From Candidatus Cloacimonadota bacterium (GTDB lineage: Bacteria; Cloacimonadota; Cloacimonadia; JGIOTU-2), in assembly GCA_049903315.1 (NCBI GenBank), contig JBNGBT010000001.1:128001-192000 (forward strand): 64,000 nucleotides of DNA, in the 5' to 3' direction. Shown piece by piece: positions 41,754 to 63,939 of the stretch. Below the pieces are notes generated by a model. It saw only the letters and a program-made list of their open reading frames with translations, had not been told where the DNA came from and did not search any database. The position numbers and the translations under genes were made by a program. The first letter of the stretch is position 1. Every line of letters begins with the position of its first letter.

Positions 41754-43031
41754 TTATTTCATCAGCACACATTTTTTCAATGCTTCGGTTTTACCATTCA
41801 CATTCAGTTTATAGAAATACAAACCGGATTTTACCGAATTTCCTGATTCATCTTCTCCATTCCATGATACTGAATGTTCACCTGTCGGTATCGCTTGATC
41901 AACTAGAGTTTTCACTTTCTGTCCTTTTAAGTTATAGATTATAATTTCTGTGTTCTTTGAGCTCTGTTGCGTGAAAAATACTATTTCAGTAGTTGTATTG
42001 AAAGGGTTAGGACTATTTTGTGAAAGCAAAGATTCCGCAGCCTGATTCGAAGGTTCATCTATTCCGACGGTTGTCCATGTACCTGATGAGAGGTCGTAGA
42101 TGCAAAGGTCAGCACATGCTGCACCAAATTCATCAAGGCCGCCATAAAGAATAAGTACAGAATCAGGCTGATAAAAAGCCATTCCAGCATGATATCGCGC
42201 GACAGGGCAATCAGGGAGTTGTGTCCATGTCTCAGTTGTCATATCAAATTCATAAAAATCTGGCAGAACACCCTTATCAGCATTCAGGCCGCCGTTAACC
42301 CACATTTTCCCACCTTGGTATGTCCCTGCTTGATATGCCCTTGCACCCGGGTTGGCGCCGGAAGTATACACATAGTGAAATTCGTTGTCATTGGGGAGAG
42401 TGTATTTACGCACATCGCTGCGGAAGTCATTCTGGTTCCATCTGACCCCTCCATATAGATAGAGATCATTATTATTCATTCCACCGCTTTGTCCTGCTGA
42501 AGGAGCATGTATTTCCTTTTCTGTCCAGGTGTTTGTTGACATATCGTAACTCCAGAAATCCATCTTATTAGAGCCACTCGCATCTGTGCCGCCATAGAGA
42601 TAAAGATCGTTGCCATCTCCGACGAGAGAATGGTCTTTACGCGCCACAGGCAAGGTTGTTCCACCCTGAGGCCATTCTGACCATGTGTTCGTATACGGGT
42701 TATAAGACCACAAACTATTACTTAATCCATATGTGCTCTGTCCACCATAAACATACATGACTGCATCCAGATATGCGGCCTGGTCCTTGCTTGCAGGAGG
42801 TGGATCAGTGATAGGGACTACATTATTCCATCCATTTGCATCATAAGCAAAAAGGTCATCTTTTAGGTCTCCCTGAGCGCCTTCTCCACCGAAAAGCATT
42901 ACTCGTCCATCAGGCAGAGTTACCATACCGTGTCCATGACGTGCTCCGGGGTGATCATCTTTTTGGCTGAGTAAAAACGAGTTGGGGAAAATGATCATGA
43001 GCATACAAATTATTATTGTTTTACATTTCAT
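41754..43031 (-). CDS. Secreted Kelch-repeat beta-propeller protein with T9SS/FlgD-Ig C-terminal domain
   Basis: Six Kelch units (LFGG, YVYGG, YLYGG, YLYGG, VNGG, LYGG with downstream W) and C-terminal QNSPNPFN...YNLKGQKV...WNG...GLYFY. Confidence 0.88.
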   Translation of the reverse strand: MKCKTIIICMLMIIFPNSFLLSQKDDHPGARHGHGMVTLPDGRVMLFGGEGAQGDLKDDLFAYDANGWNNVVPITDPPPASKDQAAYLDAVMYVYGGQSTYGLSNSLWSYNPYTNTWSEWPQGGTTLPVARKDHSLVGDGNDLYLYGGTDASGSNKMDFWSYDMSTNTWTEKEIHAPSAGQSGGMNNNDLYLYGGVRWNQNDFRSDVRKYTLPNDNEFHYVYTSGANPGARAYQAGTYQGGKMWVNGGLNADKGVLPDFYEFDMTTETWTQLPDCPVARYHAGMAFYQPDSVLILYGGLDEFGAACADLCIYDLSSGTWTTVGIDEPSNQAAESLLSQNSPNPFNTTTEIVFFTQQSSKNTEIIIYNLKGQKVKTLVDQAIPTGEHSVSWNGEDESGNSVKSGLYFYKLNVNGKTEALKKCVLMK

Positions 43032-43123
43032 TTTTGACTCCTCTGTTATTGATTTACTTCATTTAACTATATTTTCTGAATAATCATCAGATTTTAGTCA
43101 AGTATTAAAATTCATGTGAGTAT

Positions 43124-43154
43124 AAAAAAAACGCACACCGAGTTCGATGTGCGT
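43124..43154 (-). terminator. Probable intrinsic terminator after the third C25 gene
   Basis: ACGCACA...TGTGCGT stem with a U-run on the minus strand. Confidence 0.65.
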
Positions 43155-43181
43155 CTAACATATATCGTAATAGTGCGGAGA

Positions 43182-46100
43182 TTATTTCATTAAGACCATT
43201 TTCTTTGTGATTTGCTTTTCGCTGGTTTCAAGCTTGTAGAAATACACGCCGTTGGCAACGGTTTTATCATGGTTATCTTTGCCATCCCATACAAAGTCCA
43301 TAACAGTTCCTTTCGGGCTTGTTTCCGGGACGAATGTTTTCACGAGTTGCCCTTTGATGTTATATATCTTCAACTCAGCCTTATGCGAATTTGCAGGAAG
43401 TGAGAAGGAAATAGTTGTTGAAGCAGTAACAGGATTTGGGAAATTCTGGTCGAGTTTGAATTGACTGATCATATAAGGATCGTCATTCGAGGTCATGGGA
43501 ATTTCATAACTGGAAGTGGGATCACCAATGAGAATATCATCAACATGGATACCGTCTTCTTGAACATAACCGTCTGAATCCATATAGAATCGGACATAAA
43601 CCTGTGGCTCACCTGCGAAATCAGAAAGGTCGGATGTTTCTGCCACCCAATCTACTTGTGTGCCGTCATAGAGCGGTTCCCCAGTTGGTTGGTAACTTCC
43701 TGTGCCGGGCTCCGTGTATTCACCTTCAAGTGCTGTCCATGTAGTTCCATTTGTCGATGCCTGTACTTGGGCATAGTCATAGTTGGGTTCTATATCCCAT
43801 TTTACATTGAAGTACAAGCTTGCACTGCCTTCCAGGCTGCTCAGATTGATGGGATTTGTGAGCTGCAAAATAGCCGTTGTCCAGGAAGGATAACTACCAC
43901 CGGGGCTGTCTGTAAAGGAATGGGTTGGTGAAACATAGTCTTCTTCAGTTGCTCCCCAATCAGCAGAAGTCCATTGAGCAGTGCCATCTTCTGCATCATC
44001 AAAGAGTTGTGCAAACCCAAGATGATAATCATATTGTGCATCACCGCTTACTGTCAATGTTCCAACATAAGGGACATGACCTTCGGCAGTGACATAGAGA
44101 TTATATGTAAAGTTTGGAAGGCTGACTTCATAGCTTCCTGCAGATGACTGTACAGAAGCAAATTCCTCGCCGTTATCTATTCGCAAATATGAAAGTGTCG
44201 CATTGTTTATCATCATGAAATCATTAAAGACATTCCCCGAAATGAATCCGCTCTCTACTGGATCTAGTACGATATCATGTGCATTCGAACCGTATCCTAA
44301 GAAATAATTGAATTCCTGGTAGGGATCATAGCCCCATTTGTTTATATAAATATCATAGTATTCTACCGCATAGTCTTCGGAAGATGAGTAAATTCCGGAT
44401 GCATCTGTCGTTGAAATAAATACAGGATCATCTTGATTAGGATTAGCTCCGTGTTCATAGAAGCTGACTTCAGCATTGGATACAAGAGAGCCGTTTTGAC
44501 TTTCTGTGACTATGCCGGACACATTTCCATATGCAACGATTACAGGGAAGATCTCTTGATATATATTATATCCTGATTTCGCAATGATTGCATCCACTGG
44601 AGTCAGTGTCGAAGGTGTGACATTATACGTGATGTCGTCAGCAGCACTGAATCCTCCGCCATCGACATTCACCCATAAAGTATAATTATCTTCATCAGCA
44701 GAAGCTTCAATTGTGCCTTCGAGGTTCAATGCAAATGTGTCTGCAAGACCAAAGTCTGTGGTCACGTTCAAACTCGGATTGGTCAGATCAAGCGCAGTGA
44801 CATCCACCTCTTCATGGAAAAGATAATAATCATCGCCCGGATTCTTTCCATATATCTGAAGTGTGGGACCATAATTGTAGTTCACATTAAGAACTGCTGT
44901 ACCTGTAACATCAGTAACTTCTGTTGCAGAGGTATAATTCAGCCCTTCTGCCCATACATCTACTCCAACCTGAGGTGAAATGCTGTCCGGTGCCATAACT
45001 TCGACAGTAACCAGCGACTGGGTATTGACATTGATCGTACCGGGATTAATGGTTACGACACTTGCAGTAACTATAATGTCACCTACATATTTATGATAAT
45101 TGTGGGCAACGACTGCAATATGAAGAATTCCTGCTTCACTTGGAACTGTATCAAATATAAGTGTGCCTGTTCCGAGGATATTGATCTGAGCATATCCGTA
45201 AATTGTATCATCGTCATATACAACGACTCTGGATCCGGCAGGAGCTGAAATATCTATTTGCGGGACACCAGCCATTATGGTTTGAGGATAAACCGGTACG
45301 AGTAATGACGGTTCGGCAGTCCATAATTCGAGTGCAGGATCGCCAAGCTCGTTAAGTTGGTAATAGCACCATCTTATGAGTTCGTCGGTGTTAATAAAGG
45401 GGAGGGTTTGCTCTTTGGAAAGCTGATTTGCTCCGCTGACAGAGTAAACACCTGTATCAAAATAGACATCGATATACTGTCTATGGAAATGCTGAGATGC
45501 ACCATCTGTTCCACCTTGCTGTCCCCATCCATACCTGCTGTTTCCGACGAATGAAGATGCAGCTGTAGACATATTAGTAATAATTTCGTAGAAGCAGTCT
45601 GAGCCATAATAGCCCGATGAAGTTCTGTTATCTATTGAGCCGGAATAACATGCTTGAGAATATCCATTATAGAAGTTGTGAGTAATACCATCGTTGGTAA
45701 GATTATAGGTTGTAAGATCGCCATTATCGATATTCAGGCAGTGTGTTGTGGAGCCGTGTCCGAGGTGATTAAGGAAATTCGGTCCAAGATTCAATTCATT
45801 ATAGAGATCGCTTGAAGACCAGTTATAGTTTATCTGGTAGAGTGTTGTTACCGCCCAGCTGCCAGGGATTCCTACAGTTGTGTAGCCATTTGAAGAACTT
45901 CCTATGAGGAGTTCATTCATATACGTACCGCCGTAGGTGCCTGGCCAAAGATTTTCACCAACCATCAGAGAAGATTCGAGATCACCCAAAATAGGTGATT
46001 CCAGGTATCTCTGGATCTTATTTATTTGATTTGCAATCTCAGTGCTGTTATTTGCGGCTATTCTGCCGATATACACTTCTGCAAGCATGTCGGCTTCATT

Positions 46101-47117
46101 CTCTTCACCCCACAAAGAATTGTTGTTATTATTCCAATCAGGACCTATTCCTGCTGCTGCAGTACGGTCAAGACAGCCATAATACATATCTGCGGGAATG
46201 TCGTCGTCCTCATAGCCGTAGCCCGGATCAACATACATACCCCTATCAGGTATGATGTCAGTATCTGCACCCATGAGCACATATTTGACAGGATAGTCAG
46301 TATATTCTGCAATCACATAGTTTCTGATCTGATCTCCGACATCCACACCCGGATAATTGAGCATAATATCACTCACAAGAGTGATCGTTGATTTCAGTCC
46401 TCTCATTGCGTGGAAATCTGCAAGTGGCTGAAAATCGTCCTCGAAGCTGCTACTGGTAATGATGATATAATCATATCCGTCAGCTTTTGTTTGGGGAACG
46501 GTATAAGTGCCAAGCATGTCAATATTATCCACAAGTGCAGCAAGTCTGGTTTCTATTTCAGGATTATTGTGTAAAAATTTTTGAGCATTTTCTGCTGCTG
46601 CATCATAGGATGTTTCAAGTGTGACAACTGCCTTTTTGTAATAACTCAGCTCCTTTGTTGAAGGCATATAGGAAAGGGGAGTAACTGCAAAAGAACCGAT
46701 AGAATATCCTGCGAGATAATGAGTAGTATAATCATTATACTGCTTGGTTGGGAAAGGTGAATCACTTGAATAAATAGTCTGGTCCGGAGGAGTGAATTCT
46801 GCCTGATCTAATAATGAAAGGGGCATGGGTTGTTGCTTGGGATAAATGGTGTAGTTTCCAAGAGGAGTTTTTTCAAAGAATTCAATTGTGATATCAGAAA
46901 CAGCCTGCATTTGAGGAAGAAGGAGATTGATGCCAATATAGGGCAATGAGGGTTCGCCGGGATTTCCAAGATGGTAACTATCTTCCAATTGAAGAATGGC
47001 ATATTCACCATCGATTTCTACTTCTGGAGCATCAAAGTAATAGGTCTTTGTTATCATATCTGCAAAACTGATGGATGTAATAAAAAGAATGATGATTAGA
47101 ATACTAATTTTTTTCAT
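43182..47117 (-). CDS. C25 (gingipain-family) cysteine peptidase, neither Rgp- nor Kgp-type, with propeptide, Ig stalk, immune-inhibitor-A-like jelly-roll domain and C-terminal sorting domain
   Basis: Signal peptide, GNPGEPSLP propeptide, EVYIGRI, catalytic HLGHG and SQACYSG, LGDP, and C-terminal QNFPNP...GVYFYKL. Confidence 0.88.
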   Translation of the reverse strand: MKKISILIIILFITSISFADMITKTYYFDAPEVEIDGEYAILQLEDSYHLGNPGEPSLPYIGINLLLPQMQAVSDITIEFFEKTPLGNYTIYPKQQPMPLSLLDQAEFTPPDQTIYSSDSPFPTKQYNDYTTHYLAGYSIGSFAVTPLSYMPSTKELSYYKKAVVTLETSYDAAAENAQKFLHNNPEIETRLAALVDNIDMLGTYTVPQTKADGYDYIIITSSSFEDDFQPLADFHAMRGLKSTITLVSDIMLNYPGVDVGDQIRNYVIAEYTDYPVKYVLMGADTDIIPDRGMYVDPGYGYEDDDIPADMYYGCLDRTAAAGIGPDWNNNNNSLWGEENEADMLAEVYIGRIAANNSTEIANQINKIQRYLESPILGDLESSLMVGENLWPGTYGGTYMNELLIGSSSNGYTTVGIPGSWAVTTLYQINYNWSSSDLYNELNLGPNFLNHLGHGSTTHCLNIDNGDLTTYNLTNDGITHNFYNGYSQACYSGSIDNRTSSGYYGSDCFYEIITNMSTAASSFVGNSRYGWGQQGGTDGASQHFHRQYIDVYFDTGVYSVSGANQLSKEQTLPFINTDELIRWCYYQLNELGDPALELWTAEPSLLVPVYPQTIMAGVPQIDISAPAGSRVVVYDDDTIYGYAQINILGTGTLIFDTVPSEAGILHIAVVAHNYHKYVGDIIVTASVVTINPGTINVNTQSLVTVEVMAPDSISPQVGVDVWAEGLNYTSATEVTDVTGTAVLNVNYNYGPTLQIYGKNPGDDYYLFHEEVDVTALDLTNPSLNVTTDFGLADTFALNLEGTIEASADEDNYTLWVNVDGGGFSAADDITYNVTPSTLTPVDAIIAKSGYNIYQEIFPVIVAYGNVSGIVTESQNGSLVSNAEVSFYEHGANPNQDDPVFISTTDASGIYSSSEDYAVEYYDIYINKWGYDPYQEFNYFLGYGSNAHDIVLDPVESGFISGNVFNDFMMINNATLSYLRIDNGEEFASVQSSAGSYEVSLPNFTYNLYVTAEGHVPYVGTLTVSGDAQYDYHLGFAQLFDDAEDGTAQWTSADWGATEEDYVSPTHSFTDSPGGSYPSWTTAILQLTNPINLSSLEGSASLYFNVKWDIEPNYDYAQVQASTNGTTWTALEGEYTEPGTGSYQPTGEPLYDGTQVDWVAETSDLSDFAGEPQVYVRFYMDSDGYVQEDGIHVDDILIGDPTSSYEIPMTSNDDPYMISQFKLDQNFPNPVTASTTISFSLPANSHKAELKIYNIKGQLVKTFVPETSPKGTVMDFVWDGKDNHDKTVANGVYFYKLETSEKQITKKMVLMK

Positions 47118-47141
47118 ACTGATGTCCTTACTTTTATTTTT

Positions 47142-48578
47142 TTATTTTTCTAATTTTCCATTTTTAAAAATAATTTTATTATCAACTTTAATGGTTTTAT
47201 CAAGCATATAGAATTGTGCGATCATATTAGAGTCAATATTGCTGGCTTCGAGTTCGTCCCAGCCAACCTGCAAAGTGAGCGCACCAAATATTTTTGTATT
47301 AATGTATGGATGGTAAATATTTTTATGAAGTGCAGGATTCATCCCTATTGTGAACGAGCCAACAAGTTTTTTGTCTCCGGTGGCATTTTTGAAAAGGGTT
47401 TGAAGTTTCTCATCATCTTCTTTTGCCTTCATCTTTGTAATCTTATTTTCATGAATTGTGATGTCAACATCTTCAAAGAGTGTATCATAGAGATAAGCAA
47501 AATCTGTGTGGAATTTCCCATTGATCATGCCTTTTTCAAGCAAGCCGACAACCAGTCCACCAGGAAGTTCGGAGTCAGTGGCAAGAGAATTTGCAATTCC
47601 ATCTTTTATCTGAAGAACTCGTTCCTCGGGAAGTTTCATGTCGAGCAGACTCCCGTTCCCATCTTCAATGGAAATTGTGTTGGATGTTGCAAGAAGATCC
47701 TTGACCCGAAGACAGTTCTTCGTGAGTTCTTTAGGTTCTTCATTGAGTGCCCGCCAGTACATCTCACTTCTCAGTTCAGCATCAGCTTTCTGAAAATTAT
47801 TATATATCGTATCTATTGTAAGGAAGCGGACATCGGTTTCGTAGGTTTTGCGCACATTTTCCCGTTTTGCTTCTTCGATAAGATTGCTTTTTTCGATAAG
47901 CTCTTCACTGAGCGTTTCATCTTCAATCTCATCGAGGAATTCTCCGGAAAAGATAATATGGGCATCAGCTTCATTAATAAGAAAATCACTTATGACATCC
48001 TTGGTTGCACAGGTAAGGGGTACATGACGGATGAAGTTATACTCCATCCGCTTCGTCCAGAAAACAGGTATTGCATAAGCTCCCTGACGAGCAATTTCCA
48101 CCATAAGATCTTCGACCAGCTTCCTGTGCATGGGCTGGTAACTTATTACCACTTTTTCATTTTCTTTTATAGCAAGGTTGTGAGTAATAATCTTATGTGC
48201 AATATCCCTGAAACTGATTTTGATGACTTGTTCTCTTCGCCATTCATCAATTTCCTGGCTGAGCACAGCATGAATGACATTGGATTTTTTTAAATTAACT
48301 TCACCAAGTGAAACGTCAACGAAATAATTCCTTGCAACAGCACGATAATATTTTTTAATCGTGCCACGGACATGTTCAGATTCGACCAATTCTATAAGTC
48401 CAGCACTTTCAAGCTGTTGCATGTCATACCAAAGTGCATTGGGTTTGATGTTGAATTTCAATGCAAGTTCTTGTGCCGTATATTCTCTGTCAACCATGTG
48501 GCGAAGAATTTTCAAACGTCTATCAGAGGACAGGGTCTTGATTCCTTCGAGCGTTGAGATATAAAAAATTTCCTGCAT
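47142..48578 (-). CDS. ArsR-type winged-HTH regulator fused to an M29 (thermophilic metallo-aminopeptidase)-like domain lacking metal ligands
   Basis: N-terminal RLKIL...TAQELA...LESAGLIEL...KYY. M29-like segments IAHKIITHNLAIKENEKVVI, ELPGGLV, INGKF, VGSFTIGMNP, NTKIFGALTLQVG and IKVDNKIIFKNG. Confidence 0.8.
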   Translation of the reverse strand: MQEIFYISTLEGIKTLSSDRRLKILRHMVDREYTAQELALKFNIKPNALWYDMQQLESAGLIELVESEHVRGTIKKYYRAVARNYFVDVSLGEVNLKKSNVIHAVLSQEIDEWRREQVIKISFRDIAHKIITHNLAIKENEKVVISYQPMHRKLVEDLMVEIARQGAYAIPVFWTKRMEYNFIRHVPLTCATKDVISDFLINEADAHIIFSGEFLDEIEDETLSEELIEKSNLIEEAKRENVRKTYETDVRFLTIDTIYNNFQKADAELRSEMYWRALNEEPKELTKNCLRVKDLLATSNTISIEDGNGSLLDMKLPEERVLQIKDGIANSLATDSELPGGLVVGLLEKGMINGKFHTDFAYLYDTLFEDVDITIHENKITKMKAKEDDEKLQTLFKNATGDKKLVGSFTIGMNPALHKNIYHPYINTKIFGALTLQVGWDELEASNIDSNMIAQFYMLDKTIKVDNKIIFKNGKLEK

Positions 48579-48609
48579 AAATTACACTTTCTTCATACTT
48601 CAGAAGTGA

Positions 48610-48637
48610 ACTTGCGGGAGTATTTCATCCCGCAAGT
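48610..48637 (-). terminator. Stem-loop between the Rgp-like gene and the regulator (weak terminator or mRNA stabiliser)
   Basis: ACTTGCGGGA...TCCCGCAAGT 10-bp stem with no strong U-tract. Confidence 0.45.
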
Positions 48638-48648
48638 CATTTTATTAT

Positions 48649-51600
48649 TTACTGCAATAAGAGTAATTTCTTCGTAATTTCTTTCTTGTCAGTAGTGAGT
48701 CTATAGAAATAAACTCCGTTTGCTACTGGTTTGTTTACATTATCCTTACAATCCCATTCGAAAGTGAAGAGAGGTCCTTCATCGATATTGGGAGTGAAGG
48801 TTTTCACAAGTTGCCCTTTCACATTATAAATGGAAAGTTCTGCTGTCTGAATATTCTGCGGAAGTGCAAAGGAGAAGGTCGTGGAATTGTGTACAGGATT
48901 TGGGAAGTTCTGATGCAGCGATACTATTTCAGTAGGGCGAGGATCGTCGTTACTGACTATTGGAATTTCATAACTTGTGCTTGGATCGCCGATGAGTACA
49001 TCGTCTATATACCAGCCATAATATGTATGCACCGAATAGTCAGATGCAAATGTCCAGCGCAATGTTGCCGTGTTACCGGCATGAGCTGAAAGGTCAAATT
49101 CAACCTGCTCCCAATCGGCAATCTGACCACCGAAGCCCGGAGCACTCAGAGCGCTGATATTGCCGCTGTAACCGCCCTCAGGTGTGATGAGATTATAACC
49201 TACTCCGCCATTTGTGGAGATCGTAACATTTCCGCCATCATACAGAGTTGAGGTCCCTTCGAAATTATAATAATGCCAGAAATAAAGTGTGGCGTCTGCA
49301 GGAACAGTGAATTCTGGAGAGTACAGGAACCAGTCCACATTATCCTGATAGGTTCCTCCAAGAACTGTTCCCCAGAGATTTATTCCGGAGTGAGCAGTGA
49401 TACCACCGGCAGTTGGTTGTCCCCACTGCCATCCACTCGGATCACTGCTTACAAAATTCCCATCATTTGGCTCAAAATCAGAAAAGAGAGTTGCATAGCC
49501 AAGATGATAATCAATGATCATATCACCATTCACAAGCAAACTGCCTGAATATGGAACGTATCCCTGTGCAGAGACATAGATATTGTAGTTGAAATGCGGA
49601 AGAGAGACACTATACGCTCCATAAGAGATATCTGAAACTGCATACTCGTCTCCATTATCCGATCTATAATAATGTATGGTACCATTTGCAATATTTGCAA
49701 AGTCACCGTAAACGGTGCCGGACACATTTCCACTTTCAACCGGATCAAGCTGCATATCATGAGAATTTGCCCCATACCCGAGGAAGTAGCTAAGTTCCTG
49801 ATAGGGATTAAATCCCCAATGGTCTATATAAATATCGTAATTATCAACAGCTTGCTCGGAAGGTACATTGTAAAATCCAGAAGAGTTTGTCGTTGCAATG
49901 AAAAGAGGATCATCTTCAGGAACTGCACCTTCTTCATAGAAGCGCACCTCTGCATTAGAGATCGCAGTGCCGTTATCACTATCAGTGAGTGTTCCGGAAA
50001 CAGTGCCAAATGCCACAATTACTGTGAAATCTTCTTCATAAATATTGTACCCGGATTTCGAGATTATTGAATGAACGTTTCCCAATTCATCAGGGGTCAT
50101 TAACAACGAGCTGCCGGCTGTGTTTGCGTAGCCATTTTCATTCAGCTTTGCCCAGAGTGTTGTCCCGTCGTCAGTGCAGTACTGGTTGATAGACGCTTCC
50201 ATGTTCATAGCAAGGGTGTCATACAATCCAAAGGTCGTTGTCACATCAATATCAGGATCTGTTAAGCTGAGAGCATTTACCGTGAGTGATTCATCGAAGA
50301 GGAGGTAATCTTCATCAGGTCGTTGACCGCAGATTTGAAGCGCAGGTCCAAATTGATAATTGATAGAAAGTACTGCCTCTCCATTTGAATCAGTGGCTAT
50401 CACTGAAGATGTATAATCGAGTCCTTCTGCCCATACATTTACGCCTACTTCAGGATTGATGCCATCGCTGTCCATAACGGTCACAGTAACATTTGTTGCC
50501 TGATTGACATTAATAATATGAGGAGTGATATCTACCTGAACTGGGACGATCGCATCAAGAAGTGCGGTATAAGGTATTGTATTGTAAGCAGTGACGGTTA
50601 GGGTCATTTGTCCGGGAGTCACCAGCGGCTCATCGAGAGTAATAGTTGCATGACCAGTGAAATCTGTATTACCGTAACCATACAGAGTGCCATCCATATA
50701 CAACCCGATAAGTGCGCCTTCAATGCCGACCACTTCGACGTCATAAGTAGTTGAGCCGAGGGGGATAATAGGATTATGATTCACTGTCATTAATGCTGGA
50801 GTATCTGTTCGAAGTTTTACTGAGGGATCTCCGAAAACTGTCCAGTACTGAAATTCGTTTGTTCCGCCAGATGGATTTTCATCCATCATTTGCATTGCAC
50901 CACTGAAAAAATAGTTACCGACAGTCGTGACTTTTTCATTTGCAAGGAACATATTTGCGTGATACTCAGCGATCATAGGTGGGAGCCAGCTCTGACTGAT
51001 AACTGATGCATACACGCCAATCGAGCCGGTTGGAATTCCGCTCGAATTATTTGTGGCACGTGCCCATGCTTCAGCAAAACAGGTGGAGCCGGTGAAATTA
51101 CCATTCAAACAGGCAACACACAGGACTGTGGGATACATATAATTATTAGTAAGTGAATTAATATTTGTGGTTGAGAATCCGGTTGTGCCCCAAGATGTTG
51201 TTGAGCCATGACCGCAGTAATTAACAACACTGCGCCCATTATTTATTGCGTTGGCCACATCAGAAGCTGTTCCTGACGGATCATAGATCTGGTCTACCGA
51301 GGTGTAGTTCCATGCAAGTAATGAATCGCGGATGTGATCCATCATAACATAGTCAGCCCAGCCATTATATCCAATACCTGAACCTTGAGAAGAAGCTACA
51401 CCGACACCTTTATGCATCCAGTCACCGGAAATAAATGGATCAGATTCATAGTAGAGCACGCGGTTGACCTGGGTTTCTACATGTGTGCCGGTCTCAGCCG
51501 AGAATCTCCCGACAAATGCATCAGGATAAGAATCTCCGCCCTCAAGGCAGGCATACAAAGGATCTTTATTGTTTTCGCAGGGAACAACTTGCGGAGCATC

Positions 51601-52527: not shown

Positions 52528-52539
52528 TGAGGGTCCTCC

Positions 52540-55500
52540 CTAACGTAACAATATCATTTTTTTAGTTATTTCTTTATTATCGGTTGTTAATCTATAGAAA
52601 TAGATTCCATTGGCAACCGGCTTTTCAGTCATATCCTTGCCATCCCACTGAAGCTCATGAAGAGGGCCGGTGGATAGATCAGGAATGAAGGATTGTACGA
52701 GTTGTCCTTTGATGTTATAGATCTTCAGTTCGGCTTTTGCGGCATTAACAGGCAGCATGAATGATATCGTGGTTGAGTTGAGAACAGGATTTGGGAAGTT
52801 CTGCTGGAGTTTTGTCGTCACAATTTGAGGAATTGGATCATTATCAAAATAGATTTCCTGCCAGCTTGAATTAGGATCTCCATAGAGCACATCATCGATG
52901 TACCAGCCATAATAATCATGAACTGAATAGTCTGTGCCAAAATGCCAACGGAGGATAGCATTATCACCCGTATAACCGCTGATATCAAATTCAACCTGCT
53001 CCCATTCATCGATCTGACTGCCAAAACCTTGTTCGCCATCAAGTCCGCTGATAGATCCAGTATATCCTCCTACTGGTGTTATGACGTCAAAGCTAACTCC
53101 TCCATTTGTCGAGATGGACACATTTCCACCATCATAGTATGTGGAGGTTCCTTCAAAATCATAGAAATGCCAGAAAGTTAACATACCTGAACCGTTTATC
53201 GAAAATGTTGGAGAATCAAGAGTCCAGTCTACATTATCGACACCATAGTACCCATCGATCACTGTAGCCCAGCAATGTGTGCCGGAATGTGCGTATATCT
53301 CACCACCTGAAGGTATGCCCCATTGCCAGCCGTTTGGATTATTACTCACAAAATTTCCATCATTTTGCTCGAAGTCAGCAAAAATCGCTGCATACCCAAG
53401 ATGATAATTTATTCCCATATCACCTTCAACCGTTAGGGTTCCCGAATATGGGACATGCTGAGGTGAAGAAACATAAACATTGTAAGTAAAGTTTGGAAGT
53501 ATTACTTCGTAGGTTCCATCGCTCAAATCAACTGTTGCATATTCTTCACCATTGTCGCTGCGGTAATAGCTAAGAGTGCCAGTACTGAGAATAATGAAGT
53601 CACTGACAAGTTGACCAGAAATCATACTGCTTTCAACAGGGTCCATAACAATATTATGTGTGTTTGCACTATAGTTGAGGAAAAAGCCAAGTTCCTGATA
53701 TGGGTCAAAGCCCCATTTATCAATATATATATCATAGTGATCAACTGGATATTCAGAAGTTATTTCATAATAGCCTGATCCATCAGTAATATCGCTGAAA
53801 AGAGGTGGCTCAGTAGGATCTCCACCCTGCTCATAGAATCGGACTTCAGCATTCGCAATGGCAACAGCATTATCAGAATCTGTTACAATACCCGAAACAG
53901 TACCGAATACTTCGATAGTTGTATAGGTTTCCTGATACATATTGTATCCCGATTTCATAATACCGGCTTTGATGTCTGTAATGCATGTAGGCGTATATGT
54001 TATTTGATCTGAGGAAGAATAGATGGATGTATCAATTTCAACAACGTAAAGTCCATATGTGCAATCTGTCTCATCCTGTGAGAAGAGTACAGTGCCGGGA
54101 AGATTCAATCCGAAAGTGTCTTCAAGACCAAAAGTTGTTGTAACCCATATTGAAGGGTTGGTAAAGTCCATTCCGCCAGTAACCCCCAAAGGTTCTTCAA
54201 GAAGGTTATATCCATCTCCGGTTCTCCACCCTATCACATTAAGGATCATGTCACCACCGTATTCACCACCAAAATTTAATGTACAGCTTCCAGAGGTATT
54301 GGTCATGCCCGAAGTTGTTCCATACACACCAGGTCCGGTAATGAGAATGTTCACATTAGGAATAGGTGTCGTGCCATCATCTTCAAACACATCAATTGTA
54401 ACATCTGTCAATGTATTGATCGGAACAGAAGTTGGGGTAATATTCACTACTGCAGGTGTAGCGACAACAACAGTTGTGCGCACGGGTTGATATTGAGGTT
54501 TAGTGACGACAATATTAGCTGTACCTGCTGTAGTAAAAGGATCGATAGTTACTTCTGCAGTCCCGAAATCATTTGCCAGTGCTGCGCCGTGAAGCACACC
54601 GTTCATAGAGATTGCAACATAAGAGCCAGGATCTGCTTGCACGGTAAAGCTTGTCGAGCCAATAGGTAAGAGTCCGGGGAATGAAACACTGTTTGTGCTT
54701 CCCTGAGTAAGATATGTTACGACAGAGGGATCTCCGAGAATGTTATATGCCTGCCAATAATAGGTAGGATTAGAATGTTGCGGATATCCTTGTATGTCGA
54801 CTTCTGTAACTGCAAGATTGCCACAAAAGAGTATTGCATCATTACATACATAATCAGAAACGAATGGTGCATCATAAGCGCCCCATGAGGTTTCTGCATA
54901 GGTGGGCACATAACCGCCGCCAGGATTGCCGAAAGCTCCTACTGCCCAATAAAAATCCTCATACCAATAAGAGGAAGGGGCAGAAGCAATATAACCGATC
55001 GAGCCCGTTGGTTCACCGGTAGCAGTATCTGTAGCACGGGCAAAAGTTTCGCCGAAACATTCAGAGTACCCGAAATCACCCGACAGACAGCAGTTTCCGA
55101 TTGTAAGAGGAAGCTTGCCTACATTAGTAAGCGCATTCACCATTGATTGACTAAAATTGGGATTACTCCAGCTTGTCTGGCTGCCATGAGCAGTGTAGTT
55201 GATGAAAGAAATTCCATCATTTACGGTATCATAGCATCCTGTATAGGAAGTAAGATAAGCATGAACATCATTGAATCCATGCAAAGCATTGAAATAATTT
55301 TCAGTTCCGTAATGAACTGTTGGCTGACCGACACTTGGGTTCCAAGAACCATCAGCACCTGCGATCAATGTTACGTCATCAAGGAAAGCGGGAACAGGAA
55401 ATTGATATTGTTCATATTCAATGGTTCTGTCAACCTGAGTTTCAAGCTGAGCAACAGTAGTAGCGGAAAATCTTCCGTAATACATTTCCGGGAACATGTC

Positions 55501-56520
55501 GCCGTCAACGCTACAATAATAGAGGTCAGTAACTTTATTTGTGGATGTTCCGATCTCTGAAGGAATCTGTCCGGTATCACCAACAAAGAGCACGAAACTC
55601 GGAGCTGGATCGGAGGGGGTTCCTGCATTGTATTGATTATGAATCCAGGTTTTGATTTGAGCTACCGAGCCGCCGATAATGTCTGTATATCCAACAATAA
55701 CATTAAATCCTTTTTGGGCTTTCCAATCAATGAAATCCTCAAGAGTTGTTTCAAACATTCTATCAGCAACAATAAGATACTTTACAGGGTAGGTTACAAG
55801 ATCCGGATGAGCTGGATAGCCGTGATCTCTACCATTAAATAGTCTGTCATTGATAACATTGAAATAAGGTGAAGCAGTTGCTGCTTTTGTGTATTCTGTT
55901 TGTGCGATATCAGGATTATGAAAGTGTACATTTACCTGAATGTCGTTATAGACCTTAATCTTTTCCTGAACAGGATTGTATTTAACAGGAGCAATGACAA
56001 TACGAGCTATGCGATATCCACGAAGTGTTCCGACAACTTCTACGGTTGCAAGTTCGACATCTTTAAAGGAATCTGTAGAATAAATATCTTCATTAAATTC
56101 AAAAGGAACGGTAGAGGGATCAGTATTCTTGGAATAGGAGGGTTGAACTGGAGCAATAGAATGAATAATTCCATATTCACTCAGATCGTATTCCTGCATT
56201 GTGTAATCAAGCACTTCTATGGAAACTTCTGCTCCAAAAGGAATATCAATCAATTTTTTGATTGCGGGAAGTTTGGGTGATCCAATTTCTCCTATGAAAT
56301 AACCATCTCGGATTGCAAGTTCTGTGAACTCTCCACCTTTACTGGTGATATCCATAGTAGATATTTCTGAAAATTCAAAGGTAACATCTAGGTCATTATA
56401 AGAATTTTCAGTGATTTCAAATTTAGTTTCTGCTTTGTCCAATGCAATGGGTGAATTGCTTGCGAAAGCGAGCGAAGCCACAAAGGTGAACAGCAGAACA
56501 AATAACAGTGTTTTCTTCAT
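52540..56520 (-). CDS. Lys-gingipain (Kgp)-like C25 cysteine peptidase with propeptide, stalk and C-terminal sorting domain
   Basis: WKAQKGF, KVTDLYY.SVDGD.FPEMY, LIAGAD.SWN..VGQPT, YTGCY, NYTAHGS, IGNCC and SYWYEDFYWAVGA, recognisably like Kgp motifs. Confidence 0.92.
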   Translation of the reverse strand: MKKTLLFVLLFTFVASLAFASNSPIALDKAETKFEITENSYNDLDVTFEFSEISTMDITSKGGEFTELAIRDGYFIGEIGSPKLPAIKKLIDIPFGAEVSIEVLDYTMQEYDLSEYGIIHSIAPVQPSYSKNTDPSTVPFEFNEDIYSTDSFKDVELATVEVVGTLRGYRIARIVIAPVKYNPVQEKIKVYNDIQVNVHFHNPDIAQTEYTKAATASPYFNVINDRLFNGRDHGYPAHPDLVTYPVKYLIVADRMFETTLEDFIDWKAQKGFNVIVGYTDIIGGSVAQIKTWIHNQYNAGTPSDPAPSFVLFVGDTGQIPSEIGTSTNKVTDLYYCSVDGDMFPEMYYGRFSATTVAQLETQVDRTIEYEQYQFPVPAFLDDVTLIAGADGSWNPSVGQPTVHYGTENYFNALHGFNDVHAYLTSYTGCYDTVNDGISFINYTAHGSQTSWSNPNFSQSMVNALTNVGKLPLTIGNCCLSGDFGYSECFGETFARATDTATGEPTGSIGYIASAPSSYWYEDFYWAVGAFGNPGGGYVPTYAETSWGAYDAPFVSDYVCNDAILFCGNLAVTEVDIQGYPQHSNPTYYWQAYNILGDPSVVTYLTQGSTNSVSFPGLLPIGSTSFTVQADPGSYVAISMNGVLHGAALANDFGTAEVTIDPFTTAGTANIVVTKPQYQPVRTTVVVATPAVVNITPTSVPINTLTDVTIDVFEDDGTTPIPNVNILITGPGVYGTTSGMTNTSGSCTLNFGGEYGGDMILNVIGWRTGDGYNLLEEPLGVTGGMDFTNPSIWVTTTFGLEDTFGLNLPGTVLFSQDETDCTYGLYVVEIDTSIYSSSDQITYTPTCITDIKAGIMKSGYNMYQETYTTIEVFGTVSGIVTDSDNAVAIANAEVRFYEQGGDPTEPPLFSDITDGSGYYEITSEYPVDHYDIYIDKWGFDPYQELGFFLNYSANTHNIVMDPVESSMISGQLVSDFIILSTGTLSYYRSDNGEEYATVDLSDGTYEVILPNFTYNVYVSSPQHVPYSGTLTVEGDMGINYHLGYAAIFADFEQNDGNFVSNNPNGWQWGIPSGGEIYAHSGTHCWATVIDGYYGVDNVDWTLDSPTFSINGSGMLTFWHFYDFEGTSTYYDGGNVSISTNGGVSFDVITPVGGYTGSISGLDGEQGFGSQIDEWEQVEFDISGYTGDNAILRWHFGTDYSVHDYYGWYIDDVLYGDPNSSWQEIYFDNDPIPQIVTTKLQQNFPNPVLNSTTISFMLPVNAAKAELKIYNIKGQLVQSFIPDLSTGPLHELQWDGKDMTEKPVANGIYFYRLTTDNKEITKKMILLR

Positions 56521-56725
56521 CGAAAACCTCCATATTTTTATCTTTAATATTTTAAAATAAGTTTATTCAAAAAAATTTGATTAAAATCTCGCTCTTCGAA
56601 GAAGATTGTCAAGTGAAATTAGTTTTTTAATGAATTTTTTTATAAATATTAATATTAAATAAGTAAAACAAAAATTATTGACATTATTATAGATAATAAA
56701 ATTAAATTGTGTGGAGGTAAGCAAA

Positions 56726-57064
56726 ATGGAAACAAAAGATATGATAAAAAAAGTCAAAGGTGAAGTCAGCAGTGTGCTTTCAACTGTGGCAAACAAAGCT
56801 GAGTTTATAGCCAAAATGTCTAAATTGAAGATTGAAATTACCCACAAAAATGCAAAGGTTAACAGCAATTTGAAGGATATTGGCGAGTATATTTATAGTA
56901 AGAAATCTGAATTTACAAATGATAAATATATTGCTGAAATTTTAAAAGAAGTAGAAGAAATTAAGCAATCAATTGAAGAGATAAAATCGAGAATTGAAGA
57001 TATCAAGATATTAGAAAAAGAGAAGCATAGTCAAAGCGAAAAGCGAAAGAATTCCCAAGAGTGA
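56726..57064 (+). CDS. Hypothetical coiled-coil protein
   Basis: GGAGG RBS, ATG 56726, K/E-rich heptads, co-oriented with ruvX-mltG. Confidence 0.72.
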   Translation: METKDMIKKVKGEVSSVLSTVANKAEFIAKMSKLKIEITHKNAKVNSNLKDIGEYIYSKKSEFTNDKYIAEILKEVEEIKQSIEEIKSRIEDIKILEKEKHSQSEKRKNSQE

Positions 57065-57090
57065 TAAAATAAAGGAAGAGCAGCAGAGAA

Positions 57091-57507
57091 TTGAAACGAT
57101 TAATGGCATTAGATTATGGAGAACGGCGTATCGGGATCGCTCTTTCTGATCCCGACCAACTTATTACTTTTCCTTATCAGACAATTGATACAAAAAAAAC
57201 TCCGGACGTAGTGAAAGAGATAGTCGGAATAATCAAGGAACAGGATGTCGGGGCACTTATTATCGGCAATCCATTGAACAGTCTTGGGGCTGATTCTAAA
57301 AAATCAAAAGATGTGAAAACATTTATTACAATGCTTTCACACCATATTTCAATCCCGATCACATTGTGGGATGAATCCTATACAACGAGAGCAGCGATTA
57401 CTCTTATGAACCGGGCGAACAAGAAACTAAAAAAAAACCGGGATAAAGTTGATCAACTTGCTGCTTCCTTGCTTCTGCAAGATTATCTTGAGCATCATAG
57501 CGAATAG
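57091..57507 (+). CDS. ruvX: Holliday junction resolvase-like RuvX/YqgF (pre-16S rRNA nuclease)
   Basis: ALDYGERRIGIALSD, IGNP, WDESYTT and DQLAASLLLQDYL. Confidence 0.95.
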   Translation: MKRLMALDYGERRIGIALSDPDQLITFPYQTIDTKKTPDVVKEIVGIIKEQDVGALIIGNPLNSLGADSKKSKDVKTFITMLSHHISIPITLWDESYTTRAAITLMNRANKKLKKNRDKVDQLAASLLLQDYLEHHSE

Positions 57508-57516
57508 CATAACTTT

Positions 57517-58488
57517 ATGAAAAAAGCTTTTTTGGTAGTATTAATATTTGTTTTTCTTTATTTTGTGTATTTTACCATTATGAGCTTGTATGTAAAATAT
57601 CCGATACTTAATAAAACAATAGATATCCAAAAGGGTTCATCAGTATTTCAAGTCGCAAAGAAACTTGAAGAAAAAGAAATAATTTCATCTGCAACACTCT
57701 TTCTCGTAGCAAACAAATTATTGCCGGGCGACAAGCAGATTCGGTATGGCAAATTCAATTTTACCGGGAAATATTCTTTTGTTGAAGTGCTTCATAAACT
57801 CACAAGCGGCGAGGTTGTGACCAATCGTATTACTATACCAGAAGGATACACCGTCCGTCGTGTTGCAAGTTTGCTCGCACGTCAGGAATTGGCAGATTAT
57901 AGTATTTTTATGTCACTTTGCTCGGATTCCTCGTACATTAACAGTCTGGGATTGCCGATACAGAATCTTGAGGGATTTCTCTTTCCTGAAACATATTACA
58001 TTCCATATTTTGCTGATGAAGAATATATCATTAAAATGATGGTCGATGATTTCTTTTTGCAATTTGAAAATGTTCATCCGAACCCACTTTCTTTTGACTC
58101 GTTATATGATGTGGTAATCATGGCCTCGATTGTTGAGAGGGAAGCAATTTATGATGACGAAAGACCGCTTATTGCTGGAGTGTATAATAAAAGGTTGAAA
58201 GAGCGGATGCTCTTACAGGCAGATCCTACAGTTGCCTATGCTTTGGAATTGAATCGGATTTCCCGCAAGAAAATATATTATGACGATCTTAAGATAGAAT
58301 CAGATTATAATACATATTTGTATAGAGGACTTCCACCGACACCGATCTGCAATCCCGGTATTCAGTCAATTCTTGCTGCTCTTCACCCACAAGATACAGA
58401 ATATTTATTCTTTTTTGCAGGGAAAAATAAAAGGCATATATTTTCCAAAACATATAGGGAACATTTGCAGAAGTTGAATAGGATTTAA
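57517..58488 (+). CDS. mltG: Endolytic transglycosylase MltG
   Basis: ITIPEG, LEGFLFPETY, MASIVERE, LQADPT, YNTY..GLPPTPICNPG. Confidence 0.96.
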   Translation: MKKAFLVVLIFVFLYFVYFTIMSLYVKYPILNKTIDIQKGSSVFQVAKKLEEKEIISSATLFLVANKLLPGDKQIRYGKFNFTGKYSFVEVLHKLTSGEVVTNRITIPEGYTVRRVASLLARQELADYSIFMSLCSDSSYINSLGLPIQNLEGFLFPETYYIPYFADEEYIIKMMVDDFFLQFENVHPNPLSFDSLYDVVIMASIVEREAIYDDERPLIAGVYNKRLKERMLLQADPTVAYALELNRISRKKIYYDDLKIESDYNTYLYRGLPPTPICNPGIQSILAALHPQDTEYLFFFAGKNKRHIFSKTYREHLQKLNRI

Positions 58489-58535
58489 TCTTCTGAATGT
58501 TGGATTTTTAATATGAGGTGATTTTTTCTCGTTAT

Positions 58536-58562
58536 CTCGTTCCTAAGTTGCACTTGGGAACG
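58536..58562. repeat. REP-like palindrome (CTCGTTCCTAAGTTGCACTTGGGAACG)
   Basis: Differs from 3006-3031 by one base; lies between convergent genes. Confidence 0.8.
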
Positions 58563-58663
58563 GCACTTATTATTTAAGAATTACCAATTCCAGCTTGGCA
58601 TTCAGAGGATTTGAGTTCAATCAAAAATCTTAAATCGGTGTTCGATATTCTTAGATCAAATAA

Positions 58664-60406
58664 TTACCGGACCTTCATCATTTTTTGAGTAAAGGTTTTG
58701 CCATTAAGATTTATCCTATAGAAATATACACCAGCGGGAACACTTTTTCCGGAATGGTCTGAACCATCCCATTGTATTGAGACAATCTCATTTGCTGATT
58801 GTGCGGATAGTATTTTCACAAGCTGTCCTCTCACATTATAAATTCCAATTTTGATGTCGTCGGATGTGTGATTTTTGAGTGTAAAAGCAATAGTCGTGTT
58901 TCCGCTAAATGGATTGGGATAATTTGTGGCTTCTGTGATCATATTGTGCTGTGGTTCATCTATAGAAACAGAGTTCATCACATAGAAGGAATATGCCATT
59001 GGCGCACCGATGTAAGGATTGTTCTCACTTCTACCGGAGTTGTCTGCTGCGTGAATATAGTAATTTATAATTGTTCCGTTTGACTGTGCAGGAATGCTTG
59101 CCGAGAAGAAGTTTCCAAAAATTTGATGTAAAGGAAGAGTATTGAACTGAATATCGGTTGAGCGTTTCCAATACACAAGGAGAGAGTCTGAAATCAATGA
59201 TTCTCCGCTATACGCAAAAATGCTGGTCGTGATGGTAATATCATCAGACGTACTGATAGTATCTGCAAGAGGGGTATGGTAGATATAGAGCATTCCCTGA
59301 TCTGTAACGCCCATTGTGCGGCAGTGAAGTGCATCAGTCGATTGCCATGAGCCCGTAAAACCAAGTACTTCATAACCGGGCATAGCTGATTCGTAAGATG
59401 CGAGTGCGGGTGCATCATAAGCACTACCTGTGATCGGCACGAGTACTTTATTATTTAAAATGAGCGAGTTTGTGTATGGCTGATTATTTGGCGTATTCAC
59501 ACGCGGAACTTCGTAGTTTGTGCCATAACAACTCGGCTGAGATTCAAAATAATCAACCGCTGCTTCGATCTCATCATATTGGGAATGATATGTGGGAACT
59601 TCACGAATGAGTATTTGCGTTGGGCTGAGATATTTTCCCCAGCAATCAACATGTTTTATATATTCTCCATTTACATCAGGAACAACATGATACGTTTCTA
59701 TGCCGAGATAATCATTAACAAGCGTGTTGATTTCTGCGTGGGTCAAACCGGAATTTTCTTCCCATATCAGATCTGTAGAAACTGATATGCCGTGCCCATC
59801 TGTCATATAATTGCCACCTGTTGCAGTCAACCCCATATTATATACATTAATTCCGAAATATGTCGCGCAGAAAGTGGGTATAGCATTATCGTTTGGACGG
59901 GGTCGGTTATAGGTGAAATTTGTGATTCCGGCCTCATTGTTACCATTAAAAATAAACCAGGGACCATAATCGCGAATCCAGTATGAATCCGAACTTGTAA
60001 TAAGAAATTCGACATTGCTCATATTCACACCGGCATTATTGAACGTGTTATATGCAGTGGTTTGAGAGCTGGATGAAACTATGCAATAGACCATCACGTC
60101 TTCAGCCATTTCTGCAACAATTGCCGTCGAGATGCCAAGGGGATAGCGTATCAGAACTCCCTGCATAGGATCAAATTCTGAAGGTTGACGTACTGGTCCA
60201 GGGGGCTCGAGTGTAGGAAGGAAATCCTTCCCGATCTCGTCGAGGTGGAGTTTTTCATCTTCCGTCAGCCAGATTGGAAGTTCACCAGGATGCTCATCTT
60301 GCCATTGCTCAGCATGGGGGATTTCTGCATAGAGAATAATGGATTTTGCGAAAAGTGTCACATTAAGACAAAGTAAAGAAGTTATGATAAAGAATATCTT
60401 CTTCAT
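58664..60406 (-). CDS. Secreted PPAD-like peptidylarginine/agmatine deiminase with Ig domain and T9SS/FlgD-Ig C-terminal domain
   Basis: Signal peptide, SYWIRDYG, YNRPRPND, TGGNYMTDG, GEYIKHVDCWGKYL, QPYTNSLILN, TDALHCRT, and C-terminal NYPNPF...GVYFY. Confidence 0.9.
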   Translation of the reverse strand: MKKIFFIITSLLCLNVTLFAKSIILYAEIPHAEQWQDEHPGELPIWLTEDEKLHLDEIGKDFLPTLEPPGPVRQPSEFDPMQGVLIRYPLGISTAIVAEMAEDVMVYCIVSSSSQTTAYNTFNNAGVNMSNVEFLITSSDSYWIRDYGPWFIFNGNNEAGITNFTYNRPRPNDNAIPTFCATYFGINVYNMGLTATGGNYMTDGHGISVSTDLIWEENSGLTHAEINTLVNDYLGIETYHVVPDVNGEYIKHVDCWGKYLSPTQILIREVPTYHSQYDEIEAAVDYFESQPSCYGTNYEVPRVNTPNNQPYTNSLILNNKVLVPITGSAYDAPALASYESAMPGYEVLGFTGSWQSTDALHCRTMGVTDQGMLYIYHTPLADTISTSDDITITTSIFAYSGESLISDSLLVYWKRSTDIQFNTLPLHQIFGNFFSASIPAQSNGTIINYYIHAADNSGRSENNPYIGAPMAYSFYVMNSVSIDEPQHNMITEATNYPNPFSGNTTIAFTLKNHTSDDIKIGIYNVRGQLVKILSAQSANEIVSIQWDGSDHSGKSVPAGVYFYRINLNGKTFTQKMMKVR

Positions 60407-63077: not shown

Positions 63078-63395
63078 ATGGCGTTAGCATTAACTGAAGG
63101 AAATTTCGAAAAAATCGTGAATTCGGGAAAAGTTGTCGTAGTAGATTTCTGGGCGGAATGGTGTATGCCCTGCAAAATGATAGGTCCAATCATTGATGAA
63201 CTCTCAAATGAAATGGACACCGATAAGGTTACAATGGCAAAATGTGACGTTGACAGCGAAAGAAATATTGCGATCAAATTCAGCATCACGAGTATTCCCA
63301 GTATTCTCTTTTTCAAGGATGGAAAGGTTATGGATCAGGTTGTTGGAGCAGTCCCCAAACGCATGATTGTCGATAAAATCAATGAACTGATATAA
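63078..63395 (+). CDS. trxA: Thioredoxin
   Basis: DFWAEWCMPCKM, SIP and VGA. Confidence 0.96.
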   Translation: MALALTEGNFEKIVNSGKVVVVDFWAEWCMPCKMIGPIIDELSNEMDTDKVTMAKCDVDSERNIAIKFSITSIPSILFFKDGKVMDQVVGAVPKRMIVDKINELI

Positions 63396-63468
63396 TGTAT
63401 TAACTACTTAAATTCTTACAATCAACTCGGGAGTACGTCTTCTGAGTTGATTTATTTTTTTAAACAAC

Positions 63469-63939
63469 ATGAAAGAAATTACTTTTACACTCAATGACAA
63501 GAAAGTTGCGCTCACAATCGATCCTATCAAGCGACTCATTGATGTCCTGAGAGAAGATTTTCGTCTGACAGGAACAAAAGAGGGATGCGGCATCGGAGAG
63601 TGTGGTGCCTGCACAGTGATCGTTGATAAAAAAGCAGTATGCTCTTGCATGATGCTTGCAGGTCAGGTTCAGGGAAAAGAAGTTATCACTATAGAAGGCA
63701 TTGAAAAAGAAGGTGAACTCTCTCCTTTGCAGAAAAATTTTATAAAGTATGGCGCTATTCAATGCGGATTTTGTACACCCGGCATGATCATGAGTGCCAC
63801 TGCTTTGCTGATGGAAAATCCCCATCCTACTAAAGAAGAAATCCGAATCGCTCTCTCTGGAAATCTTTGCAGATGTACTGGATATATGCAAATCATAGAA
63901 GCAATACAAGCAACAGTAAAAGAGCAGGAAGCTCAATAA
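63469..63939 (+). CDS. (2Fe-2S)-binding small subunit of a xanthine dehydrogenase/CoxS-family molybdoenzyme
   Basis: GTKEGCGIGECGACTV, QCGFCTPG and GNLCRCTGY. Confidence 0.95.
   Translation: MKEITFTLNDKKVALTIDPIKRLIDVLREDFRLTGTKEGCGIGECGACTVIVDKKAVCSCMMLAGQVQGKEVITIEGIEKEGELSPLQKNFIKYGAIQCGFCTPGMIMSATALLMENPHPTKEEIRIALSGNLCRCTGYMQIIEAIQATVKEQEAQ

Follow-up and report, generated by a model that had tools for sequence, protein, structure and literature searches.

Do the gingipain-type C25 proteases and the deiminase of Porphyromonas peptidylarginine deiminase (PPAD) type that lie close together in a Cloacimonadota genome form one regulated system, and what would such a system do there? The window analyzed here is a 64,000-nt stretch (G000:C11:128001-192000) of a 2.96-Mb genome (G000) that is 96% complete. 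Its Cloacimonadota origin, surmised by an earlier sequence-only reading, was supported by deiminase homologues at 64-87% identity that are named Cloacimonetes or Cloacimonadota and by the mostly Cloacimonadota membership of the regulator's Atlas cluster. The six open reading frames (ORFs) which that reading had described, all on the minus strand, were present at its coordinates, as were the 12-bp gap between kgp and rgp with its GGAGG motif and a C-terminal domain (CTD) on each of the five secreted proteins, all of which passed the type A cut-off (TIGR04183); the regulator had no CTD. The explanation that we regard as probable is a surface protein-scavenging system of anaerobic Cloacimonadota, built on an operon of three proteases and a regulator, with the deiminase as a linked but separately transcribed partner.

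Judged by conserved residues, the first two genes encode enzymes of the Lys- and Arg-gingipain types, as had been proposed, and cleavage at Lys and Arg is predicted for them. The product of kgp (52540-56520, minus strand; 1326 aa), which heads the operon and comprises a signal peptide (signal peptides were judged by eye), propeptide, catalytic domain, immunoglobulin-like (Ig) domains and type A CTD, had Kgp as its best PDB match (406 bits versus 134 for RgpB); that of rgp (48649-52527, minus strand; 1292 aa) had RgpB (237 bits versus 59 for Kgp). The Kgp triad C477/H444/D388 and the S1 residues D516, N475, T442 and W513 (excerpt of PMC6426963) all had counterparts in the window Kgp, namely C478/H445/D390 and D522, N476, T443 and W519; Y517, replaced there by Phe, binds through its backbone N. 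For RgpB, H211/C244 and D163 are listed as active-site residues (excerpt of PMC7222327). The window Rgp kept D392, H440, C473 and W514 at the positions of RgpB D163, H211, C244 and W284. RgpB D163 also has a role in S1.

These assignments were upheld by phylogeny, for which the proteins of P. gulae (its Kgp and RgpA cut by contig ends) stood in for those of P. gingivalis. In a 36-row tree the Kgp-type and Rgp-type sequences each formed one group, at 100/100, with P. gulae Kgp and with RgpA/RgpB, respectively, and the window kgp and rgp were the only members of their types among the 15 C25 domains that G000 encodes above the cut-off. Near-identical congeners were omitted from the trees: a narrow tree skipped rows from 17 loci, the 36-row tree used 36 of those 68 rows, and a broader FastTree of Kgp matches, in which the grouping with Kgp relatives was also examined, took in 60 of 150. 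The Porphyromonas enzymes thus have in common with those of the window their propeptide-catalytic-Ig-CTD layout, catalytic and S1 residues, and clade, at 34-44% identity to the P. gulae counterparts. They differ in arrangement, as kgp, rgpA, rgpB and porU lie on four contigs in P. gulae whereas the window kgp and rgp are adjacent under one promoter, and a domain scan of the window proteins detected no cleaved-adhesin domains in the gingipains. The third C25 protease (43182-47117, minus strand; 1311 aa) belongs to a separate subfamily: alignment and tree showed His454/Cys490 kept, both S1 aspartates absent, and a clade other than those of Kgp and Rgp. The paralogous tails of the three proteases were 45-52% identical, compared with 27-37% for the catalytic domains compared, which suggests that tails may have been shuffled within the cluster.

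The deiminase gene ppad (58664-60406, minus strand; 580 aa) encodes a PAD_porph domain, an Ig domain and a CTD, and its best PDB match was PPAD, at 380 bits as against at most 40 for agmatine deiminases. Residue roles in PPAD, including the catalytic set and the clamp for C-terminal Arg, have been described (excerpt of PMC4487231), and the catalytic C351/H236/N297, D130/D238, and the clamp R152/R154/Y233 were all matched in the window protein, in which W143, D146, R168, R170, Y249, H252, D254, C255, N313 and C362 correspond to PPAD W127, D130, R152, R154, Y233, H236, D238, C239, N297 and C351, with G182 also kept. By its sequence the enzyme is PPAD-type, a predicted exo-deiminase on peptides ending in Arg, with the same catalytic set and clamp as its Porphyromonas namesake; the second of the two PAD_porph proteins of G000 lacks the two clamp arginines and the tyrosine.

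PPAD has been reviewed as unique to Porphyromonas (PMC13539308), yet PPAD-like proteins at E<=1e-40 made up 5245 clusters, Thermoplasmatota among them. Named homologues came from Thermoplasmatota, Eisenbacteria, Bacteroidales, Marinimicrobia and Zixibacteria and included Thermoplasmata metagenome-assembled genomes (MAGs) that appear as Thermoprofundales in an excerpt of PMC6461988. A motif scan of genome contigs gave 33 PAD loci, of which only 3 were of close PPAD type (P. gulae, one Cloacimonadota and one Fermentibacteria locus in which a non-Rgp C25 lies at a distance of 6.6 kb); the remaining 30 belong to a divergent group, and their examined flanks contained no C25. The divergent PAD_porph group (L061-L093; Planctomycetota, Armatimonadota, Wallbacteria and Lysobacterales) keeps the double-Arg motif YNRPRP and differs around the catalytic Cys. 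Separately, in the PPAD orthologues of G001 and G009 (L021:5317-7506 and L029:17270-19447) the catalytic propeller is interrupted in frame by ~150 aa that matched no Pfam family at 1e-5, and the N-terminal extensions of two unfused PPADs matched no protease family.

Outside Porphyromonas, in Cloacimonadota and others, PPAD was often fused to or beside Rgp, whereas P. gulae has no C25 within 10 kb of ppad. Among 60 relatives of G000, in which Kgp-type was called at >200 bits, Rgp and PPAD formed a single ORF in 17 (15 of the 20 in family f6 and both in f7). These ORFs, of 1128-2506 aa and named by their sources as Ca. Cloacimonas and Cloacimonadaceae, comprise a propeptide, Rgp-type C25, Ig domain and PPAD; all 17 keep D163/H211/C244 and PPAD H236/D238/N297/C351/R152, with R154 in 16 and Y233 in 14. 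Precomputed Pfam architectures already show this combination, and in G054 rgp and ppad are adjacent genes with a 12-bp gap. Among the 120 of 1343 longer proteins listed by a search with PPAD only, 12 carried a whole C25 and all 12 were Rgp-type, so that every complete C25-PPAD fusion checked is Rgp-type, and PPAD was found in none of 150 Kgp relatives. Fused PPADs fell into four separate groups of a quick PPAD tree with 7 state changes, in which gains and losses are indistinguishable. A metagenome scan with one fusion as query returned 79 loci, comprising 2 fusions, 31 with rgp then ppad at <300 bp, 7 at <3 kb and 39 others; the neighbors in two loci scanned for them (L153 and L131) were the archaeal FEN-1, Nep1, PurP and TrmY. 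Because the fusion linkers range from ~90 to 1300 aa, tethering would be favored over a fixed interface. The functional coupling of Rgp and PPAD, which had been suggested from the window, thus finds its support in fusions and operons of other genomes. In the fusions examined (L001-L018) and in both linked genes of G054, the C-terminus is formed not by a type A CTD but by an fn3-like domain with a ..F[FY].V motif, which may be a second sorting signal.

What is conserved around the window genes is narrower than the module first proposed. Both Kgp-type and Rgp-type proteases were present in 41 of the relatives, and rgp directly follows kgp in 35 of those, bearing out the expectation of conserved gene order; of the six exceptions, five come from assemblies broken into 110-440 contigs, and G047 (4 contigs) is a true one. 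The regulator (47142-48578, minus strand) is directly 3' of rgp in 8 congeners and is separated from it by one or two additional CTD genes in 3 sister-genus genomes. A G+C hairpin without a U run (48610-48637, minus strand), a candidate processing, stabilizing or attenuating element, lies between rgp and the regulator and is kept in 8 congeners; a different hairpin precedes the regulator in 3 genomes of genus g6. Beyond the third C25 stands an intrinsic terminator (43129-43156, minus strand) with a 12-pair stem and T run, the predicted operon end. Gene order in relatives and this terminator define the likely operon as kgp-rgp-regulator-third C25, with ppad linked but separate. The Kelch beta-propeller protein with a CTD (41754-43031, minus strand; 425 aa), previously counted in the module, lies behind the terminator and, of 6 congeners with a visible flank, was present after that protease gene in 1; it is better viewed as a variable passenger outside the operon. 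Nor is the claimed place of ppad in the regulated unit supported: three plus-strand genes missed by the sequence-only reading (hypothetical, ruvX and mltG; 56711-58488), which are housekeeping genes outside the module and divergent from kgp, occupy the 2.1 kb separating ppad from kgp, and ppad forms its own transcription unit converging on mltG, without a shared operator and near kgp only in family f1. The ruvX-mltG pair is also upstream of kgp in G035 and G054, and G019, a MAG with 8% contamination, holds two copies of the ppad-mltG-kgp region (L034-L036).

The argument for clustering rests on this conservation more strongly than on chance: by a post hoc estimate, 1.7% of the genome is no more than 2.2 kb from one of its 15 C25 genes. 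The G+C of the locus is ordinary, and at least 150 (about 170) CTD proteins, coding for 13% of the genome, are found in G000, so that the shared CTD is no sign of linkage. Three metatranscriptomes shared only 5-8% of words with the window, and what aligned at 85% proved to be contigs from its relatives; among these, X1 (52265-52700) spans the kgp-rgp junction, which does not prove a single transcript, and the lower cover of ppad and Kelch is not interpretable. A sigma-70 scan gave 73 sites against 58.2 +/- 6.9 in shuffles, none of them useful at kgp; no -10 element was made out.

A candidate operator was found at the head of the operon. The palindrome at 56562-56585 (no strand; core TCAAA-N4-TTTGA at 56567-56580) stands 47 bp upstream of kgp, with a conserved TTGACA 26 nt ahead of it, and it was present upstream of kgp in all 12 f1/f2 loci examined and in none of 10 kgp loci of other families. 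A single core match in the window would be unremarkable (0.4 expected). A matrix from the 12 sites, however, found 5 high-scoring sites in G000, each at 20-60 bp from a start, compared with 1 site when the genome was reversed, and the pattern occurred in 21 of 21 f1 and f2 relatives, 2 of 39 others and 0 of 61 reversed controls. The five sites precede kgp, a gene for a 1286-aa C25, an LVIVD gene at the head of an operon that includes two C25 genes and one M14 gene, an M14 carboxypeptidase gene (divergent from an epimerase) and pgsB; four of them thus stand before predicted secreted peptidases. Orthologous palindromes occur in G003, G009, G017 and G021, and two relatives also have one before dsbD. 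The site before the poly-gamma-glutamate synthase gene pgsB (G000:C22:332138, L100:2172) is kept in G003 and G009. The proposal of a regulated module therefore stands in the form of a candidate operator and regulon, with ppad outside it.

The regulator (478 aa) joins an ArsR/PH1932-like winged helix-turn-helix (HTH; HTH_20 match) to a C-terminal part with a weak M29 match, an architecture that forms an Atlas cluster of 388 proteins named 'aminopeptidase.' In its structural model (pLDDT 68.5) this part is predicted to adopt the M29 aminopeptidase fold, matching PepS with Z 25.2 and a root-mean-square deviation of 3.5 over 347 aligned residues. The M29 metal ligands, which we take to be in Glu/His/Asp motifs, are kept in G000's own M29 enzyme and missing from the regulator, and no His is conserved in 13 homologues; the domain is predicted to be catalytically dead. 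Both folds are thus known, from the M29 aminopeptidases PepS, AmpT and AmpS and from ArsR/PH1932 regulators, and the regulator differs from the former in its fusion to a winged HTH and loss of metal ligands. Close orthologues occur in 20 of 21 f1 and f2 relatives and in none of 39 others. Overall the protein is probably a peptide-sensing repressor; taken singly, its binding of the palindrome is rather likely, and the case for its sensing of peptides falls just short of balanced.

For export, G000 encodes SprA and six PorV-family proteins above cut-offs, together with a PorU-like C25 (by tree, with a long-branch warning), and a type IX secretion system (T9SS) may be present in Cloacimonadota (PMC11285876); we infer that the secreted enzymes leave the cell by a T9SS-like route. 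GldM/PorM had no match in G000, but none in any control genome either. SprA, several PorV, a PorU-like protein and ~170 CTD proteins without a GldM match possibly indicate a T9SS without the Bacteroidota motor. The CTD cargo is poor in Lys+Arg, with a median of 3.9% (161 proteins) versus 11.5% in 690 other ORFs.

Arginine metabolism offers one possible purpose for deimination. As in the ArcA-ArcB-ArcC pathway, ornithine transcarbamylase (OTC) and carbamate kinase are present in G000, in which arginine deiminase (ADI, ArcA) and argG were not found; unlike in that pathway, citrulline would arise outside the cell, on peptide ends. Across 61 genomes, arcC occurred in 54, ADI in 6 (none with a fusion), and argG only in family f4, which has no Kgp, Rgp or PPAD. 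Six f4 genomes (G023, G025, G027, G029, G031 and G033; 1.5-1.6 Mb single contigs; 5 of 6 with argG) had no Kgp, Rgp or PPAD match and appear to be a non-proteolytic branch of the class. OTC and carbamate kinase without ADI or argG fit a supply of citrulline to OTC by PPAD and a carboxypeptidase, and we tentatively suggest that citrulline freed by a carboxypeptidase passes to OTC and carbamate kinase, a route that would take the place of arginine deiminase; alternatively, deimination may relieve product inhibition of Rgp or release ammonia. A 2Fe-2S gene at 63078-63939 of the window leads into ygfK, two carbamoyltransferases and carbamate kinase (G000:C11:191001-206000).

From the enzyme identities, gene order, palindrome with its regulon, and Rgp-PPAD fusions and operons, all read in sequence, we infer the activities, export, binding of the site by the regulator, repression and ligand that complete the scavenging explanation. 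The operon would export Lys- and Arg-specific gingipains and the third cysteine protease by a T9SS-like route; the regulator, as a winged-HTH dimer with a dead aminopeptidase domain, would occupy the palindromes at kgp and four other promoters until peptides binding the dead active site released it from DNA; and PPAD, transcribed on its own, would deiminate the C-terminal Arg exposed by Rgp.

Several observations weigh against parts of this account, and some of them favor other explanations. At the level of the enzymes, E152 of RgpB is Gln in the window Rgp. The deimination step is burdened in that the carbamate kinase gene lies in a ygfK purine-catabolism cluster and is thereby explained without PPAD, that OTC was searched only in G000, and that kin genomes are not independent. 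As to the link between the protease operon and ppad, ppad has no palindrome in the window or in 7 relatives, its distance from kgp is at most 11 kb in only 8 of 20 family relatives (the remaining f1 contigs being short or not fetched), and it was not in the 7 kb examined upstream of kgp in G021 or beside mltG in G035 and G054. It is quite conceivable, if somewhat short of probable, that the enzymes are real and that the position of ppad is inherited synteny in a region where secreted genes come and go, with kgp-rgp the only selected pair. The three housekeeping genes and a hairpin between ppad and kgp, the other CTD genes that fill the slot beside mltG in G017 and G019, the abundance of CTD genes and the restriction of the linkage to one family all fit this. 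The fusions and operons of Rgp and PPAD that arose independently in other families and in archaea nevertheless show that the pairing itself was selected, without proving the 2-kb link, and even here the metagenome scan, having a fusion as query, favored linked loci and left 39 of 79, many of them short, with no linked Rgp. The hairpin between rgp and the regulator could moreover uncouple the operon. That another regulator reads the palindrome, with the HTH-M29 protein acting on other targets or being carried along in degenerate form, seems less likely than not. Palindrome and regulator co-occur in one clade, which amounts to a single event, and another regulator could bind the site; the regulon includes the non-peptidase genes pgsB and, in two relatives, dsbD; and the gene that follows distant homologues (22-28% identity; 4 loci scanned) encodes, in 7 of 9 loci, a cleaved-adhesin CTD protein and not a gingipain, with L051 and L054-L059 at most 20 bp before such a protein of 1025-1088 aa. 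Against this, the regulator gene is inside the palindrome-headed operon in 11 relatives, and the distant homologues have GTCAA-N7-TTGAC, the same half-sites one base wider, upstream of their own gene in 6 of 9, although half of that repeat is the -35 hexamer; the half-site pattern, built from those sites, occurs once per genome in G026 and G050.

Two further explanations concern purpose and origin. Self-processing of the cell surface instead of feeding, that is, maturing or citrullinating the organism's own CTD proteins or shielding Rgp from self-cleavage, would resemble P. gingivalis, whose PPAD citrullinates its own cargo and protects Rgp (PMC13539308), and the cargo poor in Lys+Arg and the place of pgsB in the regulon agree with it. 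We consider it unlikely, as the regulon consists mostly of endo- and carboxypeptidases, low Lys+Arg fits equally well with protection from the cell's own proteases, and the phylum is described in published accounts as protein-degrading. A virulence cassette recently received from or passed to Porphyromonas is highly improbable. The narrow tree did place P. gulae Kgp as sister to the Kgp of the window's order, and P. gulae PPAD groups with two Cloacimonadota PPADs; adding 60 Kgp relatives, however, moved P. gulae to another clade with a Bacteroidales protein (FastTree), and the modest identities, class-wide genes, thousands of PPAD-like clusters reaching into Thermoplasmatota and ordinary G+C all argue against recent transfer. 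Cloacimonadota as the direct donor of Porphyromonas Kgp was likewise dropped once the hint from the narrow tree was lost with wider sampling.

Gingipain-like C25 proteases have been reported in Cloacimonadota and MBG-D/Thermoprofundales archaea (excerpts of PMC8542988, PMC8359207 and PMC6461988), likewise as secreted protein-scavenging peptidases of anoxic habitats. In the excerpts cited, these accounts make no Kgp/Rgp assignment and mention neither a deiminase nor a regulator; the word 'deiminase' is absent from the main texts of PMC8542988 and PMC6461988. The literature searched, which held few subscription journals and no supplements, yielded no account of PPAD in environmental organisms, of fused Rgp-PPAD proteins, of the operon or the regulator, or of an M29 fold used in a one-component regulator; supplement tables of PMC8542988 and PMC6461988 may list the genes. 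The locus is real and conserved; its enzymes belong to known families but are newly arranged, and its regulator is a candidate for a type not described before. It suggests an old protein-scavenging toolkit, not an invention of disease.

PPAD, which is studied because of a connection with rheumatoid arthritis, has been regarded as a peculiarity of Porphyromonas. Its occurrence in intact form next to Arg-gingipains, or fused with them, in bacteria and archaea of the environment implies a host-free origin of the pairing, and natural single-chain Rgp-PPAD proteins offer a means of examining the reason for coupling the two steps. The candidate operator, five-site regulon and candidate repressor make the control of extracellular proteolysis in an uncultured phylum testable in vitro. 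Taken jointly, and still somewhat speculatively, the data can be read to mean that Rgp and PPAD form an ancient module, fused or paired time and again in anaerobes of both Bacteria and Archaea that degrade protein, which substitutes outside the cell for arginine deiminase, and that in this order a hitherto undescribed one-component repressor with a dead M29 domain senses peptides and controls the proteases. If true, the citrullination cascade of Porphyromonas would be a feeding pathway re-used in the host.

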